Notes under the pieces: generated by a model
Seen by the model: the letters and a program-made list of their open reading frames with translations, nothing else
Told to the model about the DNA's origin: nothing
Database searches by the model: none
Shown: positions 2,691 to 8,042 of the stretch, in pieces
Layout of the letters: each line of letters starts with the position of its first letter
Position numbering within the stretch: position 1 is the first letter of the stretch
Program-made: the position numbers and the translations under genes
Origin: a virus
Taxonomy: Duplodnaviria; Heunggongvirae; Uroviricota; Caudoviricetes
Strand: one strand, 5' to 3'
Length of the DNA stretch: 8,042 bases
Virus record (IMG/VR): IMGVR_UViG_2693429662_000023
Span: 1 to 8,042 of that record

Positions 2691-2888
2691 ATGGTTGCCG
2701 TAAATCATATACCACACCTTGTACACACACAAACGGCCTTTGTGTGGCGTTTTCTGGCCCTGAGTGCCGGAGAATCTCAAATCATCCACGTAACCGCCTG
2801 GACGGAACGCGAAGCGCGTAGCCGTTGCCCGTCCGGTTGTGTTGCTGTATTCGCCGCCCGTATTCGTCAGGGGGGGGGCCATGCCTGA
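2691..2888 (+). CDS. Hypothetical protein (65 aa), possibly the N-terminal part of a frameshift-split gene
   Basis: ATG 2691 preceded by AGGAG (2681-2685) with a 5-nt spacer. Ends ...RIRQGGGHA at TGA 2886-2888, immediately after a G9 tract, and overlaps the next start (ATGCCTGA). Confidence 0.4.
   Translation: MVAVNHIPHLVHTQTAFVWRFLALSAGESQIIHVTAWTEREARSRCPSGCVAVFAARIRQGGGHA
2870..2878. repeat. G9 homopolymer tract at an ORF junction
   Basis: Nine consecutive G at 2870-2878, read directly from the sequence, in the context CAGGGGGGGGGCC. Confidence 0.95.
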
Positions 2889-3207: not shown

Positions 3208-3507
3208 ATGAGAACATATTTATCTGGCTTGACTGCCAGCGGTTATGCACACCCCCAAATTATCCCCGGCGCTATTTATCTGGATAAGAACGGTAACAGA
3301 GTAACGGTAAAAGAACTGATGTTTGACCGTGTGTATTTTATTCGTGATGGCTATTCATTTCATAGTTCGCTGAACGTGGAGATCTTTATTAGCAGATTCA
3401 GGCGGGAAATCCCGCTTTCCAGAAAAAACCATGTGTCACGTGTGAATGTGGATAAAAAACTACAGGAACTGAAAAACATGATTGCCGCGTGGAGAGAGCA
3501 GAAATGA
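3208..3507 (+). CDS. Hypothetical basic protein (99 aa)
   Basis: ATG 3208 with GGGGA 9 nt upstream. Stop TGA 3505-3507 overlaps the primase ATG 3504 (ATGA overlap), suggesting translational coupling. Confidence 0.55.
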   Translation: MRTYLSGLTASGYAHPQIIPGAIYLDKNGNRVTVKELMFDRVYFIRDGYSFHSSLNVEIFISRFRREIPLSRKNHVSRVNVDKKLQELKNMIAAWREQK

Positions 3508-5321
3508 AAAAAGCGCCAAATTTAAAACACCAGCCGCGTGACAAAATGACGGAAGTCATCATTTTTGCGGGTAGTGATGCGTGGGCACATGCGAAGCAGT
3601 GGCAGGAACAGGACGGGCGACTGGCTGGCGATAACGTGCCTCCTGTCTGGCTTGGAGAGCAACAACTTGCCGAACTGGACAACCTGCAAATCGTACCGGA
3701 CGGACGCTATCGCGTGCGTCTCTATCAGGCGGGGTTATTGCGTCCGGGGCTTGTTAATACCATCGGGCAGAAACTGGCAGCGGCAGGTGTCAGGGATGCT
3801 GATTATTACTCTGAAGGAATGCACAGCCAGAAACGGGAGAACTGGCGCGAATATCTGGAACGTGAACGGGCAGAGCTGGCGGAAAAGAAAAAGGTAGTTG
3901 AACTGCCTGTAAAGAAAAAAGAGCGGGTAAAAGACGATAACGCTTCATCACTGGCGCTTAACCAGATGGGAGCAAGTCAACGCGGCGAAGTTCTCCTGGC
4001 ACATTATGGCGGTGAACTGGCGATTCATGCTGACTCTGACACTGTTCACCATTACAACGGCGTTGTATGGGAGCCAGTACAGGATAAAGAATTACAGCGA
4101 GCTATGGCACAGATTTTCATTGATGCGGAGATCAGCTATTCGCAGAACGCCATTAAATCGGCGGTCGATACCATGAAGTTAAGTTTGCCTGTAATGGGGA
4201 ATACAGCCCGTAACCTGATTGGATTCAGTAACGGGGTATTTGATACCAGAACAGGTAATTTTCGGGAGCATAACAAAAACGACTGGTTGTTAATTGCCAG
4301 TGAATTACCTTTCAGCCCACCAGCAGAGGGGGAAACGCTGGCAACACATGCGCCGAATTTCTGGAAGTGGTTACGCCGTTCGGTGGCTGAGAATGACCGC
4401 AAGGCGGATCGCGTACTGGCTGCATTATTCATGGTGCTGGCGAACCGGTACGACTGGCAGTTATTCATTGAGGTAACAGGTCCAGGGGGAAGTGGTAAAA
4501 GCGTGATGGCGGAGATTTGCACCATGCTGGCGGGTAAGGCCAACACAGTATCGGCAAGCATGAAGGCGCTGGAAGATGCAAGGGAACGCGCGTTAGTGGT
4601 TGGCTTTTCGCTGATTATCATGCCGGATATGACCCGCTACGCTGGTGATGGGGCAGGAATTAAGGCCATTACAGGCGGTGACAAGGTGGCAATTGATCCG
4701 AAACACAAAGCCCCCTACTCAACGCGTATTCCGGCAGTAGTGCTGGCGGTTAACAATAACGCCATGTCATTCAGTGACCGCAGCGGGGGGATCTCACGTC
4801 GTCGGGTGATATTCAATTTTTCGGAAGTTGTACCGGAGAACGAACGCGATCCAATGCTGGCGGAAAAAATAGAAGGTGAGCTGGCGGTAGTGATTCGCCA
4901 TCTGCTTACACGGTTTGCTGACCAGGACGAAGCCAGACGCCTGTTATATGAGCAGCAGAAATCTGAAGAAGCACTGGCGATAAAGCGAGAGGGGGATTCG
5001 CTGGTGGACTTCTGCGGCTATCTCATGGCGTCGGTAATGTGTGATGGCCTGTTAGTGGGTAATGCTGAAATTGTGCCATTCAGCCCACGCAGGTATCTCT
5101 ATCATGCCTATCTGGCTTATATGAGGGCACATGGGTTTGGTAAACCTGTAACACTGACGCGCTTCGGTAAAGATATGCCGGGGGCAATGGCGGAATATGG
5201 CAGGGAGTATATGAAACGGAAAACGAAGCACGGTTTGCGTTCAAACGTGACACTGACGGAGGAATCAGAAGACTGGATGCCATCATGTGTATCGGTCACT
5301 AATGACGATAGCAAAAATTAA
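3504..5321 (+). CDS. Replication protein: D5_N/primase-C-terminal-like domain fused to SF3 helicase (P4 alpha-like pri-rep)
   Basis: Start ATG 3504 with GGAGAG 7 nt upstream (the track's GTG 3489 is an alternative). Walker A motif GPGGSGKS encoded near 4480-4503. Upstream segment ...GFSNGVFDTRTGNFREH... resembles the D5_N region of P4-family primase/helicases. An iteron origin lies immediately downstream. Confidence 0.9.
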   Translation: MKKAPNLKHQPRDKMTEVIIFAGSDAWAHAKQWQEQDGRLAGDNVPPVWLGEQQLAELDNLQIVPDGRYRVRLYQAGLLRPGLVNTIGQKLAAAGVRDADYYSEGMHSQKRENWREYLERERAELAEKKKVVELPVKKKERVKDDNASSLALNQMGASQRGEVLLAHYGGELAIHADSDTVHHYNGVVWEPVQDKELQRAMAQIFIDAEISYSQNAIKSAVDTMKLSLPVMGNTARNLIGFSNGVFDTRTGNFREHNKNDWLLIASELPFSPPAEGETLATHAPNFWKWLRRSVAENDRKADRVLAALFMVLANRYDWQLFIEVTGPGGSGKSVMAEICTMLAGKANTVSASMKALEDARERALVVGFSLIIMPDMTRYAGDGAGIKAITGGDKVAIDPKHKAPYSTRIPAVVLAVNNNAMSFSDRSGGISRRRVIFNFSEVVPENERDPMLAEKIEGELAVVIRHLLTRFADQDEARRLLYEQQKSEEALAIKREGDSLVDFCGYLMASVMCDGLLVGNAEIVPFSPRRYLYHAYLAYMRAHGFGKPVTLTRFGKDMPGAMAEYGREYMKRKTKHGLRSNVTLTEESEDWMPSCVSVTNDDSKN

Positions 5322-5334
5322 ACTTATGGAATAA

Positions 5335-5563
5335 CTGTTCACCACTGTTCACCCTGTTATAAATATCTTTTATATCAGTATATTATAGGGTGAACAGTTA
5401 TTTATGAACTGTTCACCAAACTATTCACTGTTCACCTTTTTGATTGTTTATTGAGCTTCAAGGGTGAACAGTGGTGAACAGTTGGTGAATAGTTTTTGTG
5501 AAACTGTTCACCCCTTAACATTATGAATTAAAAGATAAAATATCAAAAGGTGAACAGGTGAAG
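5335..5563. repeat. Iteron-type replication origin
   Basis: Nine perfect copies of CTGTTCACC or its complement GGTGAACAG: 5335-5343, 5345-5353, 5389-5397, 5409-5417, 5428-5436, 5463-5471, 5473-5481, 5504-5512, 5549-5557. Degenerate copies include CTGTTAT (5354-5360), CTATTCAC (5421-5428) and GGTGAATAG (5484-5492). AT-rich spacers at 5358-5388 and 5515-5548 could be unwinding elements. Confidence 0.8.
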
Positions 5564-5654
5564 GGTTAAAACGCAAAAATTTTAATTTACTGCTGTGAGA
5601 TAAAGCCTATGACAGCGAAGCACATAAAAAAAATCACAATCGCACGCCCTTGAT

Positions 5655-5849
5655 TTGACGGAACACTGGTTAAGGGTGTCGATAAAAATCATCGACCGCA
5701 ACGCCGGGGAAGGATATGCGAAAGCACATCCCGAACTGATTAGCGCATTCATGACCACGACGGCGGCAAACTTTGCCACGCTGACAGAACGGGAGATTGC
5801 CGAAGCGGAACAGGTAACAACCATCAACGTTAAAAGCGCTGGAGAATAA
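5655..5849 (+). CDS. Hypothetical small ORF (64 aa from TTG; internal ATG at 5751) or non-coding transcript
   Basis: ORF ends TAA 5847-5849, 19 nt before a strong terminator. No usable SD for any in-frame start, so coding status is doubtful. Confidence 0.25.
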   Translation: MTEHWLRVSIKIIDRNAGEGYAKAHPELISAFMTTTAANFATLTEREIAEAEQVTTINVKSAGE

Positions 5850-5867
5850 CCGAAGTAGTGAACACAT

Positions 5868-5891
5868 AGCCGGAGCAATCCGGCTTTTTTT
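5868..5891 (+). terminator. Rho-independent terminator
   Basis: Stem AGCCGGA (5868-5874), loop GCAA, stem TCCGGCT (5879-5885), then T7 run 5885-5891. Confidence 0.7.
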
Positions 5892-5925
5892 CGATCTCGC
5901 ATATCTTAAAAAATGGTTGATTGAT

Positions 5926-5931
5926 TATAAT
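5926..5931 (+). promoter_or_regulatory. Candidate -10 hexamer (TATAAT) for the downstream two-gene operon
   Basis: Perfect TATAAT at 5926-5931 within TTGATTGATTATAAT, about 50 nt upstream of GTG 5980. The -35 is weak. Confidence 0.3.
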
Positions 5932-5979
5932 CTATCGAAAATACTGATTATTAGATGATAAGCATCAGGAGGAAACAAA

Positions 5980-6174
5980 GTGGAACAGATAAAGCAAAGC
6001 GCTACCGTGATGATTGATCACGAGATCCTAAACGAGCTTAAAAAACTTCAATTCGATGTTATTCGCCGGATGAATGAAGCTGGTATATACGGCAGAGCCG
6101 CCACGCCAACAGTAGGCCATCTTGCTCGCGTGCTGTTACGCGAACGCCTGGGCATTGCAACAGGTGAGGAATAA
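5980..6174 (+). CDS. Small putative DNA-binding protein (64 aa; RHH-like or HTH-like)
   Basis: GTG start with AGGAGG (5966-5971) 8 nt upstream. Product MEQIKQSATVMIDHEILNELKKLQFDVIRRMNEAGIYGRAATPTVGHLARVLLRERLGIATGEE has a strand-helix-helix pattern. The fold assignment is tentative. Confidence 0.55.
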   Translation: MEQIKQSATVMIDHEILNELKKLQFDVIRRMNEAGIYGRAATPTVGHLARVLLRERLGIATGEE

Positions 6175-6176
6175 CA

Positions 6177-6338
6177 ATGGCTATCACAGAACGCGAGGCA
6201 AGCATCATTAAAGCCATTGGCGAGGAAACAAGAGACACGATAGCGCCATTAATGGAAAAGATCGCAGAGCTTGAGAGACGAATAAACAAGCTGAGTGATG
6301 AAGTTGAAGGCCTGATCTCGTTACTCGGTGAGCAATGA
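6177..6338 (+). CDS. Small charged coiled-coil protein (53 aa)
   Basis: Not in the ORF track because it is under 60 aa. ATG 6177 sits 2 nt after the upstream stop, with GAGGA (6166-6170) 6 nt upstream. Translated by hand: MAITEREASIIKAIGEETRDTIAPLMEKIAELERRINKLSDEVEGLISLLGEQ, with a heptad-like hydrophobic pattern. Confidence 0.5.
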   Translation: MAITEREASIIKAIGEETRDTIAPLMEKIAELERRINKLSDEVEGLISLLGEQ

Positions 6339-6400
6339 CAGGGGGGGGGAGTGTTCCGGCCGGAAAGTCGATCGCCCTGGACACCGCCCCCCGTCTCATT
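6339..6400. promoter_or_regulatory. GC-rich palindromic element containing a second G9 tract
   Basis: G9 at 6341-6349 in the same CAGGGGGGGGG context as the tract at 2870. Perfect palindrome TTCCGGCCGGAA at 6354-6365 and CGATCG at 6369-6374. Arm GGGGGGGAGTGT is near-complementary to ACACCGCCCCCC (6381-6392). No T-run follows, so it is not a canonical intrinsic terminator. Confidence 0.4.
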
Positions 6401-6422
6401 CGTAGAAAATTTTGCTTTTCAA

Positions 6423-6445
6423 AAAAGTTACACGAAAAGTTACAC
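6423..6445 (+). repeat. Tandem direct repeat AAAAGTTACAC x2 (12-bp period) upstream of terS
   Basis: AAAAGTTACAC at 6423-6433 and 6435-6445, about 25 nt upstream of the terS ATG. Confidence 0.6.
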
Positions 6446-6467
6446 CCCCTCAAAACGAGGTTTTTGC

Positions 6468-6956
6468 ATGGCATTAACGACCAAAAAAAAGCGGTTTGCT
6501 GATGCGTTATCAAGGGGCGCAAATCCCACGGAAGCCGCTATACATGCGGGATACAGCGAAAAGACCGCAAGGGTCAAAGGCTGGCAGCTATCCAACGATC
6601 CTGAGGTGAAAAAGTATCTTAAGGCTGTAACTCCTGATGTAACTTTTCAGGTTACAAAACCGAAAAAAGTTACAAAGAAAGTTACCGAAAAAGTTACACC
6701 GGAACGGGCATCAATTAACACCATTGAGATGATGGATAACGGCCTACCCGACCCCATCAAAGCAATGGGCAGGATACTGATTGACAACATGGACACAGAT
6801 CCAAAACTGGCTTTAGATGCCGCGTTTAAGCTGGCCCAGTTCACCCACCGCAAGATCGGCAGCATTGGGAAAAAAGAGGTTAAAAAACTCAATGCCGCTA
6901 GTGTCTACTCAAATCGGTTCCCCATCCCTAAGCCACCAACAGACTTAAAACACTGA
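6468..6956 (+). CDS. terS: Terminase small subunit (P27/Terminase_2-like, N-terminal HTH)
   Basis: Start ATG 6468 chosen over the track's GTG 6351, which would translate the GC-rich palindrome. N-terminus MALTTKKKRFADALSRGANPTEAAIHAGYSEKTARVKGWQL matches the TerS HTH pattern (K.KRF...Y...N.T.AA..AGYS.KTA). Contains a KVTKKVTEKVT repeat insert. Confidence 0.75.
   Translation: MALTTKKKRFADALSRGANPTEAAIHAGYSEKTARVKGWQLSNDPEVKKYLKAVTPDVTFQVTKPKKVTKKVTEKVTPERASINTIEMMDNGLPDPIKAMGRILIDNMDTDPKLALDAAFKLAQFTHRKIGSIGKKEVKKLNAASVYSNRFPIPKPPTDLKH
6627..6697. repeat. 12-bp periodic GTAAC/GTTAC repeat array inside terS (candidate pac or TerS-binding site)
   Basis: GTAAC at 6627 and 6639. GTTAC at 6651, 6669, 6681 and 6693, with spacings of 12, 12, 18, 12 and 12 bp. 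Same core as the upstream AAAAGTTACAC repeats. Confidence 0.5.
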
Positions 6957-6967
6957 GGTAGCGAACT

Positions 6968-7129
6968 ATGAGCGAATACATCACAGACCCTATTGATGTA
7001 CTCACGGAAATCATGAACGACAAGCAGCAGTCGACCGAAATACGGTTACAGGCCGCCGCTGTTCTGATGCCATATTTTCACGAAACACTAAACCCGTGCT
7101 TCCAGGAGGAGGAAGAAGATGATCTGTAA
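6968..7129 (+). CDS. Small protein (53 aa) resembling the C-terminal segment of TerS, with acidic tail
   Basis: ATG 6968 with GAGG 9 nt upstream. Translated by hand: MSEYITDPIDVLTEIMNDKQQSTEIRLQAAAVLMPYFHETLNPCFQEEEEDDL. Aligns by eye with TerS residues DPIKAMGRILIDNMDTDPKLALDAAFKLAQFTH (shared DPI...I..D.......AA.....F.H). Overlaps the capsid gene start by 11 nt. Confidence 0.45.
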   Translation: MSEYITDPIDVLTEIMNDKQQSTEIRLQAAAVLMPYFHETLNPCFQEEEEDDL

Positions 7130-8042
7130 AAACATGAAAGGCGTGTCAGCAGTTCGCGCCGCCAGCGTGCTGGCATCGTGTAAATTTAGCCATGCTGACG
7201 CTATAGAGATGACGAAAAGAAATGATCCGGCAGTATCGTTATTTCTTGAAAAATCCGTAGTAGCAGGAATGAACACGGATAACATGCCGTCGCTGGTGGC
7301 AGAGCCGATAGTAAGAGAGCTTGGCGAGTATATTTTTTCGCAGTCTGTACCAGGCAAGCTAATCAGCAGCGCGCTAAATCTTCCTTTTGGCGCAAAATTG
7401 CAGTCAATATCAGGCAAGGGCAGTAAATGGCTTAAAGAAGCCGAAGAAATCCCTGTCAAAGAGGGAGAAGTAAACGAAAGTGCGCTAAAACTGTGCAAAC
7501 TTGGCGCTATTGTGATGCTGAATAACGAGCTAATCAAATTTAGCACCCCTGGTACAAATTCAGCGATCAGAGACTTGATCACATCGGAATCGGTGAAAGA
7601 AATAGATAAAAAATTTCTTTCCAGTGACCAGGAGGTGGCTGGCGTATCCCCTGAGGGCGTGCTTAATGGTGCTGATGAGGCCGAAAACTTCATAGAGCTT
7701 TTCAAAAAGCACATAGCGAACGGTAACACGCTTTCCACGTCGTCGCTAATCTTGCCCGTAGAAAACGCCTTACAGCTTACTGATGCTGAGTTCTGGCAGA
7801 TAGAGCTTTTGAGAATACCGGTAATTGTGAGCGAACAGGCGGATCGCATGATGCTGATAGACGCTCAAAAGCTGATTATTAACGTTGAAGCCACGGTTAT
7901 AACCCCAACTGATGAGGCGGTAATAAAAACCGAATCAGGGGCGGTTAGCCTTTTCCAGAATGACGCTACAGCGTTCAGGGCAATCACCTATTGCGGATGG
8001 CAAAAACTCGATAAGGCCGTCACCGTTCTGGCGAAAAGCTGA
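7119..8042 (+). CDS. Major capsid protein, HK97 fold (Phage_capsid family), 307 aa
   Basis: ATG 7119 preceded by AGGAGGAGGAAG. Internal motif EIDKKFLSSDQEVAGVSPEGVLNGA and C-terminal LFQNDATAFRAITYCGWQKLDKAVTVL match hallmark HK97-family capsid motifs (..ID.aFl.GdG...P.GlLN.. and ..F..D.tAfRa..R.......AfvvL). Stop TGA at 8040-8042 coincides with the window end. Confidence 0.7.
   Translation: MICKNMKGVSAVRAASVLASCKFSHADAIEMTKRNDPAVSLFLEKSVVAGMNTDNMPSLVAEPIVRELGEYIFSQSVPGKLISSALNLPFGAKLQSISGKGSKWLKEAEEIPVKEGEVNESALKLCKLGAIVMLNNELIKFSTPGTNSAIRDLITSESVKEIDKKFLSSDQEVAGVSPEGVLNGADEAENFIELFKKHIANGNTLSTSSLILPVENALQLTDAEFWQIELLRIPVIVSEQADRMMLIDAQKLIINVEATVITPTDEAVIKTESGAVSLFQNDATAFRAITYCGWQKLDKAVTVLAKS

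Follow-up and report, generated by a model that had tools for sequence, protein, structure and literature searches.

Why does an otherwise ordinary stretch of phage-related DNA carry a run of nine guanines shortly upstream of a terminase gene? We analyzed this question in the window, that is, the whole 8,042-nucleotide (nt) stretch of the IMG/VR virus record IMGVR_UViG_2693429662_000023, in which a G9 run at 6341-6349 lies between a small open reading frame (ORF) and terS, the gene encoding the small terminase subunit TerS. An earlier reading made from the letters of the window (the sequence-only reading) had placed this run in a GC-rich palindromic element, had paired it with another G9 tract at 2870, and had suggested a slippage-prone regulatory switch, a protein-binding site, or a processing site at the entry to the packaging operon. 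The window is a compact phage satellite, namely a phage-inducible chromosomal island (PICI) of Escherichia coli, and our comparisons indicate that the segment 6341-6421 is very probably a homologue of a cos (cohesive-end) site that serves packaging. Whether the G run itself is functionally required is, judged from its conservation, an even question.

The G9 run, the near-palindrome, and the inner palindrome are present as the sequence-only reading described them. The dinucleotide CA is followed by G9 and then by AGTGT, directly after which lies a perfect 12-bp palindrome, TTCCGGCCGGAA (6354-6365); downstream of the palindrome are CGATCGCCCTGGACACCG, a C6 run (6387-6392), and GTCTCATTCGTAG, with ACACCG and C6 together spanning 6381-6392. 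An imperfect inverted repeat reaches from the G9 side to this C6 run; with 75% complementarity between its 20-nt arms (6343-6362 and 6373-6392), it ranks 14th among the inverted repeats of the window. No T-run was present 3' of C6, where 6393-6410 reads GTCTCATTCGTAGAAAAT. The long G tracts are unusual, as had been claimed: runs of at least seven G are over-represented, with six overlapping 7-mers compared with 0.63 expected by composition, a number that none of 200 shuffles reached. Nothing about the palindrome itself is exceptional, and it is less striking than its appearance suggests, the chance expectation being approximately two perfect 12-bp palindromes per 8 kb (8042 x 4^-6).

The phage relatives of the neighboring gene revealed what the element resembles. 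A tblastn search with the island TerS matched 115 phage records, and the top-listed matches, approximately 46% identical, were HNH-type lambdoid phages, mostly phages converting for Shiga toxin (Stx) types Stx1a, Stx2a, and Stx2c, and their relatives. BLASTP comparison of the island TerS with the TerS of HNH-type Stx phages likewise gave 46% identity, with the C-terminal half the best conserved. In those phages, terS follows an HNH nuclease gene, and the spacer between the two genes begins, right past the HNH stop codon, with CCGGGGGGGATCATCCGGCGAAAAAAACGATCGCTCCGGACACCGCCCCCCCTCTCACGCAGAGAAAAAA, which is visibly the element found at 6339-6408 of the window. A blastn search with the window spacer matched 77 phage records with 78-83% identity over 6341-6421 (E down to 9e-10), and the match sat between the HNH gene and terS in the phage records inspected. 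We then aligned nine sequences (alignment A1: three satellites, five E. coli phages, and the Salmonella phage FSL SP-016), in which GGGGGG, TCC.G, CGATC, GGACACCGC, TCTCA, and AGAAAA were invariant.

The cohesive end of the homologous phage site is known from the literature. Zhang et al. analyzed the virion DNA of the Stx1 phage Lys8385Vzw with PhageTerm and reported a cos phage with 3' cohesive ends and the 10-nt sequence CGCCCCCCCT at the genome end (PMC7946995). The Lys8385Vzw record ends with ...GGACACCGCCCCCCCT and begins with CTCACGCAG / CTCACGCAGAG, the junction lying inside the conserved block. In the window, the position of CGCCCCCCCT is occupied by CGCCCCCCGT (6385-6394), a 10-mer that is unique in the window, directly follows GGACAC (together 6379-6394), and recurs in the Stx2c phage 2851. 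The predicted nick between 6394 and 6395 lies 73 nt before the terS ATG at 6468, the same arrangement as in Stx phages and HK97, and the earlier placement of the site at the entry of the packaging module was borne out. A full-text literature search for the overhang strings returned unrelated papers only, and a scan of genome contigs with a single TerS protein yielded 184 pattern matches and no confirmed relative. The parts of the site are as follows.

6341 to 6349, plus strand: G9 run, at which the segment common to the satellite and the helper-type phage cos region begins on the left; the predicted bottom-strand nick follows 35 nt later.
6350 to 6368, plus strand: variable cos spacer, with the satellite-specific TTCCGGCCGGAA at 6354-6365; the sequences at this place in phages are different, and some include small dyads.
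6369 to 6384, plus strand: conserved cos core CGATCGCCCTGGACAC, in which CGATC and GGACAC are invariant in satellites and phages; the bottom-strand nick is predicted after 6384.
6385 to 6394, plus strand: CGCCCCCCGT, the predicted 10-nt 3' cohesive end (cosN equivalent); the top-strand nick is predicted between 6394 and 6395.
6395 to 6421, plus strand: conserved block past the nick, CTCATTCGTAGAAAATTTTGCTTTTCA, with an A/T tract; the blastn alignment reaches 6421.

The satellite and the HNH-type Stx phages (Lys8385Vzw, 2851, BP-4795, and Stx2a_WGPS2) are thus homologous from the G run to approximately +27 past the nick, and in both the site is directly upstream of a Terminase_2 terS. They differ in their surroundings: the satellite cos follows a 53-amino acid (aa) ORF, whereas the Stx-phage cos follows the HNH gene; the spacer between the G run and CGATCGC holds TTCCGGCCGGAA in the satellite and differs in Stx phages; the downstream repeats are AAGTTACAC in the satellite and GTTAAC in the phages; and the distance from cos to terS is approximately 75 nt in the satellite and approximately 230 nt in Stx phages.

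The spacer between the G run and CGATCGC (16-19 nt) was also highly variable among the phage cos variants in IMG/VR. Some of these spacers (e.g., those of L037, L043, L062, and L067) hold dyads of 5-7 bp, such as ATGTT..AACAT, GAGGTTT..AAACCTC, and ATCGG..CCGAT, and the satellite TTCCGGCCGGAA occupies the same spot. A covarying small dyad at this place was considered and rejected; it was seen in few variants only (ATGTT/AACAT and AGGTTT/AAACCT), and its register was inconsistent.

The G run extends beyond the Stx phages to HK97, for which passages in PMC9410871 and PMC11331095 describe an experimentally known 10-nt 3' overhang and cleavage stimulated by the HNH protein gp74. The right end of HK97, ...CAGGGGGGGGGATCAAATCTTCAAAACCTTTGCCCCAAATGACCGCCGCCAAA, contains G9 followed by ATCA (as in Stx phages) 42 nt before the end, and its overhang CGCCGCCAAA follows GAC and begins with CGCC like that of the window, without a C run. 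The G run precedes the overhang by 35 nt in the window, compared with 34 nt in Stx2a_WGPS2 and 32 nt in HK97. We used a G run 32-35 nt upstream of the overhang as a criterion; it was derived in the present analysis and is not a published one. A pattern scan of IMG/VR for CGATCNCNNNGGACACCGC returned 120 loci, comprising 57 cos-like loci and 63 chance matches in GC-rich DNA. All 57 cos-like loci had a run of 5-11 G at the same distance, whereas the run was absent from 59 of the 63 chance matches. Pooled, approximately 60 phage-type loci have runs of 5-12 G, and the run lies 32-35 nt before the nick in these loci, in HK97, and in 22 satellites. That HK97-type cos sites share a conserved G run of unstable length is a small new observation.

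Several IMG/VR variants with the overhang CGCCGCCTCC keep the G run and lack the C run. Because the G run is kept without the C run in these variants and in HK97, G/C complementarity is not a conserved property of the site. Of the expectation that the palindrome would be conserved, one part stood, namely that the element is kept in islands with the same gene order; the near-palindrome is not a conserved unit in phages or HK97. The HK97 cos otherwise shares little further sequence identity with the satellite and has no G/C inverted repeat, whereas the HNH gene is likewise upstream of cos as in the candidate helpers, and its TerL is homologous to theirs: the Stx-phage TerL aligned with the HK97 TerL over the full length (23% identity over 490 aa, E = 1e-11). 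The HK97 TerS was unrelated to the TerS of the satellite and of the Stx phages. The G run follows the TerL lineage, not the TerS type. All of the sequence-level features of an HK97-type cos that we tested are present in the satellite, namely homology to a mapped cos, a place upstream of terS, GAC(AC) followed by a 10-nt overhang beginning with CGCC, and the G run; cleavage and dependence on a helper are predicted from them.

According to a passage in PMC11331095, the HK97 TerS binds +15 to +29, an interval matching 6395-6421 of the window. Transfer of this binding-site map to the satellite was rejected as unjustified, since the TerS proteins are unrelated.

One prophage carries an insertion at the G run. 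In LC567822.1 (locus L154, prophage PPompW_132418), the IS110-family insertion sequence ISEc20 (746-2204) sits inside the cos G run; its right junction reads ...GTAAC/GGGGGATCATCCGG, its left junction is another G run, and ISEc20 may target G runs. This prophage also lacks the lysis and HNH genes from the interval between the Q/tRNA region and cos, and prophages of this kind keep cosN, TerS, and TerL without HNH.

To describe the variation of the site, we compared 22 islands, comprising the window, 12 RefSeq loci, and nine IMG/VR loci, with duplicates removed. The results revealed G6 in two islands, G7 in six, G8 in five, G9 in six, and G10 in three, and the C run was C6 in 20 islands and C5 in two. 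Among O157:H7 genomes alone, G8, G9, and G10 occurred. The genome matches H17-H60, which include O26 and O111 records, nearly all had a total match length of 899, matching the G7 loci that were sequenced, although another sequenced locus with this length reads T plus G6. The variation was present alike in long-read complete genomes and IMG/VR contigs. In assemblies, the tract is a homopolymer whose length calls will differ between strains and sequencing technologies. The sequence-only reading had called for length heterogeneity to be looked for, and had counted an invariant tract and an element absent from islands of the same gene order against itself; the length varies between related islands, and the element is present in islands of the same gene order.

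Apart from the G run, the spacer of approximately 130 bp between the 53-aa ORF and terS was near-invariant, with 0-2 substitutions in 129 nt between satellite lineages. Divergence between lineages reached 4.5-8.4% in the two upstream small genes, at most 1.6% in the cos spacer, and 0.4-2.9% in terS, and it stepped down at the G run (5980-6956 of the window compared with L002-L021). The contrast of 0-2 substitutions in the spacer with 4.5-8.4% in the upstream genes indicates that the non-coding spacer is constrained. All invariant positions of the phage cos core were retained in 22 of 22 satellites. The block of cos, terS, and capsid gene appears to behave as a separately exchanged module.

The similarity between satellite and phages ends approximately +27 past the nick, after which the repeats differ, the phages having GTTAAC and the satellite AAAAGTTACAC twice. 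AAGTTAC occurs in six copies in the window, all within 6425-6697, compared with 0.8 expected. The AAGTTAC/GTAAC repeats are candidate TerS sites that would give the satellite a packaging specificity of its own. They fall into two groups.

6423 to 6445, plus strand: two direct AAAAGTTACAC repeats, candidate binding sites for the satellite TerS (cosB-like).
6627 to 6698, plus strand: further GTAAC/GTTAC repeats inside terS, encoding a KKVTKKVTEKVT linker; possible extra TerS binding sites.

We infer cleavage in the satellite, the identity of the helpers, and the roles of the repeats and of the G run as follows. After induction and replication, the satellite TerS would bind its own AAGTTACAC repeats just right of cos and would recruit the TerL and HNH proteins of a helper, with the conserved TerS C-terminus contacting the helper TerL. 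The complex would cut at GGACAC^CGCCCCCCGT^CTCA, the bottom strand after 6384 and the top strand after 6394, leaving 10-nt 3' cohesive ends, and packaging would proceed rightward through terS and round the concatemer to the next cos. The G run would be among the last DNA entering the head, packaged just before the terminal cleavage. Located approximately three helical turns before the nick on the end-of-packaging side, it would most likely be a recognition or pausing element on the TerL/HNH side, similar to cosQ. The island would keep the cut site of the helper and the G-run side, and its own TerS and repeats would direct the helper terminase to island DNA. Since the distance to the nick is fixed for the nick-proximal end of the G run alone, distal slippage may be near-neutral if approximately six G remain, which would explain the hypervariability of the run and fits the observed minimum of 5-6.

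The likely helpers are lambdoid prophages, most of them Stx-converting, that carry an HNH-TerS-TerL module whose TerL is of the HK97 type. Such candidate helper phages encode both TerL and HNH; the island encodes neither, and TerL, portal, and HNH nuclease genes were all absent from the island by Pfam and in the complete-genome loci. The phage-type cos was found in 1244 of 5426 E. coli genomes, with up to eight copies in each, and NZ_CP074954.1 contains the island and four phage-type cos copies together. The 5900-6800 segment of the island was present in 220 of the 5426 complete E. coli genomes (approximately 4%), and many of the listed genome records with the island are named O157:H7, O55:H7, O26, or O111. 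The G-rich palindrome thus becomes a concrete packaging-site candidate of a small satellite found in approximately 4% of complete E. coli genomes, many of Shiga toxin-associated serotypes. The likely helpers can be named as HNH-TerS-TerL prophages, including many Stx1, Stx2a, and Stx2c phages, and the exact ends of the packaged island DNA are predicted.

Several points weigh against this interpretation. Cleavage of the satellite at 6384/6394 is predicted from homology alone, and CGCCCCCCGT is one base off the mapped Lys8385Vzw overhang, though equal to that of phage 2851. The AAGTTAC repeats occupy +31 to +56 and further places within terS instead of the +15 to +29 bound in HK97. A function of the G run is suggested by its conservation only, and term searches of PMC9410871 and PMC11331095 turned up no passage on an upstream G run. 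Sequencing errors in the homopolymer could account for some of the differences in tract length between assemblies. Finally, a unit of 8.8 kb is far below the head size of the helper and would need small capsids or multimers.

The instability of the G run might itself have a function within the cos site. The run would then be a hypermutable cosQ-like module of HK97-type cos sites, and slippage would generate variants with different efficiencies of cleavage or termination. We regard this as unlikely; if true, the packaging and hence the transfer of Stx phages and their satellite would be phase-variable, and the satellite would keep the shared half with the G run and cosN and swap only the TerS-binding half.

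Alternatively, the segment could be an inactive relic that came along with a phage-derived terS, the island being packaged by a pac/headful mechanism from the repeats inside terS. The island does have a TerS of its own and repeats inside terS (6627-6698), as in pac-type satellites, and the drop in divergence at the G run suggests that cos and terS moved as a unit. However, the invariant phage cos-core positions are kept in every one of the 22 satellites, conservation of the spacer equals or exceeds that of terS, and the TerL of the candidate helpers is of the HK97 cos type. The results make a relic improbable.

The switch that the sequence-only reading had put forward appears equally improbable. 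In this reading, G-tract slippage would gate terS expression or the synthesis of an N-terminally extended TerS, or would tune the efficiency of cos. The polymorphism of the tract, G6-G10 among islands and even G8, G9, and G10 among O157:H7 genomes, is in its favor, as is an ATG at 6335 that overlaps the upstream stop codon and, with G8, is in frame with terS through an open frame from GTG 6351. Of the features expected of a contingency locus, length polymorphism between close strains is present, whereas a tract within an ORF or a promoter spacer is not: the tract lies in no conserved ORF, and no promoter-like site was predicted in 5300-7200. Moreover, 119 nt separate the tract from the start of terS, and that start has a GAGG Shine-Dalgarno sequence of its own; in two islands, the putative extension frame is broken by a C run of C5 between 6351 and terS; and the Pfam Terminase_2 domain aligns from residue 3 of the protein that starts at ATG 6468. 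The Prokaryotic Genome Annotation Pipeline (PGAP) annotates a 489-nt terS in every genome examined. In phages, the same run varies from 5 to 12 and follows the HNH stop codon. The lengths were not confined to particular classes, and all lengths from 6 to 10 occurred in otherwise intact islands.

Two coding candidates across the tract were rejected. The ORF 6335-6502 (55 aa) is shifted out of frame by the G-run (6-10) and C-run (5-6) variants and is never annotated by PGAP. An N-terminal extension of TerS from GTG 6351 (6351-6467) has its frame broken by the same variants, Pfam aligns TerS from ATG 6468, and PGAP does not annotate the extension. With G9, a single reading frame holds the 53-aa ORF, its TGA stop, and the open frame that runs from 6351 into terS. 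This frame coincidence across 6336-6467 is probably coincidental, and it is not conserved over the tract and C-run variants.

The weakest alternative, a GC-rich RNA hairpin acting as a U-less terminator, an attenuator, or an mRNA-stabilizing or processing stem before terS, seems extremely unlikely. The minimum-free-energy hairpin, from the stop codon to 6400, reaches -36 kcal/mol, and it is located between co-oriented genes; nevertheless, it has no U-run, and the terminator scan was silent here and called 5868-5892, in agreement with the earlier remark that this is not a standard terminator. The fold was not more stable than dinucleotide shuffles, as RNA (z = -0.87) or as DNA (z = -0.60). The main helix (helix 2) showed no compensatory change on A1, and six of its pairs are broken in phages. 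The GTGT/ACAC pairs occur in satellites only; changes in the 5' arm are uncompensated in phages, and the 3' arm, being the cut site, does not vary. In HK97, the G run persists although no complementary C run is present (DNA z = 0.01). No Rfam family matched; the sole Rfam hit was far below threshold and lay elsewhere. Thus, of the protein-binding or processing site that the sequence-only reading had listed, the general idea came close to the mark, since a cos homologue would be a site of that kind; the processing would be of DNA by terminase, not of RNA or in regulation.

Compared with known satellites, a packaging cos in this island would combine familiar parts in a different manner. SaPIbov5 and SaPIbov4 carry the cos of helpers with an HNH-dependent terminase and an HK97-fold capsid homologue, Ccm (PMC5052747), and a helper-type cos and an HK97-fold capsid homologue are also found in the present island. 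However, SaPIbov5 has only a 3' terS remnant and uses the phage TerS, whereas the present island encodes a full, diverged TerS and carries repeats of its own next to cos; its host is Gram-negative, and the function of its capsid homologue is suggested only by analogy. EcCICFT073 is an E. coli PICI that resembles the present island in having int, AlpA, primase, and a helper-like cos, with a helper-like cosN and a different cosB (PMC6092414), and it redirects the phage TerS through Rpp (PMC6739421). Its cos is of the lambda type with a 5' overhang, and it has no TerS, whereas the cos of the present island is of the HK97 type with a 3' overhang, and specificity would come from its own TerS. The predicted strategy (helper cut site, own TerS, and own repeats) therefore differs from that of SaPIbov5 (cos only) and EcCICFT073 (Rpp), and the combination of cos with a full TerS of its own is not described in the cited satellite literature (PMC5052747, PMC6092414, and PMC6739421). 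The order of cosQ, cosN, and cosB in lambda is the same, namely an upstream element packaged last, the nick site, the TerS sites, and terS; there is no sequence relationship and the overhang polarity is opposite, and it is by analogy that a cosQ-like role is assigned to the G run.

The second G9 tract of the window (2870-2878) also follows CA, and the sequence-only reading had treated the two tracts as related. In relatives, the corresponding sequence is GGGGGTGTG / CAGGGGGTGTGCCATG, GGGGGGGTG, or GGGGGTGTT, all of the same length, including one O157:H7 island with otherwise identical flanks, and the full 241-nt query around 2870 had no match above 98.3% identity among the best-ranked E. coli genome matches. 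On this comparison, the 2870 tract is a private variant that arose by T-to-G substitutions. It encodes the C-terminus of an Icd-like protein and overlaps the start codon of the following gene as well as its Shine-Dalgarno sequence. No length variation was seen at 2870 among relatives, and no cos-like sequence follows. A common role for both G9 tracts is ruled out by the substitution origin, the fixed length, and the lack of a cos-like sequence at 2870.

The remaining features of the window place the site in its island. In complete genomes, the island is an insertion of approximately 8.8 kb that adjoins tRNA-Pro between yejM and yejO or lies beside clpS. The gene-sized features are listed below.

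1 to 1242: tyrosine integrase (Pfam).
1739 to 1945: AlpA-like regulator (Pfam).
2691 to 2888: Icd-like gene.
3208 to 3507: DUF4222.
3489 to 5321: D5/P4-type primase (Pfam).
5980 to 6174: 64-aa ORF.
6177 to 6338, plus strand: 53-aa coiled-coil ORF, with its stop codon (6336-6338) separated from the G run by 2 nt; the more divergent upstream segment ends with it.
6468 to 6956, plus strand: terS, Terminase_2 small terminase (Pfam), with the C-terminal half most conserved.
7119 to 8042, plus strand: HK97-fold capsid homologue (Pfam), a candidate capsid-size or interference factor.

The sequence features of a PICI were found, namely an integrase, an AlpA-type regulator, a primase with an adjacent candidate iteron origin, a size within the range of approximately 8-15 kb, and a specific attachment (att) site. 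Cos-type PICIs are expected to have no terminase genes of their own; the present island departs from this in having a cos homologue and a complete TerS, without TerL. It would thus work like a cos-type PICI yet pair cos with its own TerS, and its packaging and transfer are predicted.

The island capsid homologue was 24% identical to the capsid domain of the protease-capsid fusion of the candidate helpers, whose protease part it does not have. The analogy with SaPIbov5 Ccm suggests a possible role in redirecting capsid size or in interference with the helper.

A canonical intrinsic terminator was called by the terminator scan at 5868-5892 (AGCCGGAGCAATCCGGCT followed by T7). It precedes the 64-aa gene, so that the stretch from this gene through the 53-aa gene, cos, and terS to the capsid gene seems to form a transcription unit of its own.

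The primase gene is immediately followed on its 3' side by dense GGTGAACAGT / ACTGTTCACC iterons in both orientations (5330-5567). This array lies in the expected place of a PICI replication origin and is a candidate for it. The replication modules differ between islands, which carry either a D5/P4-type primase or a RepA helicase.

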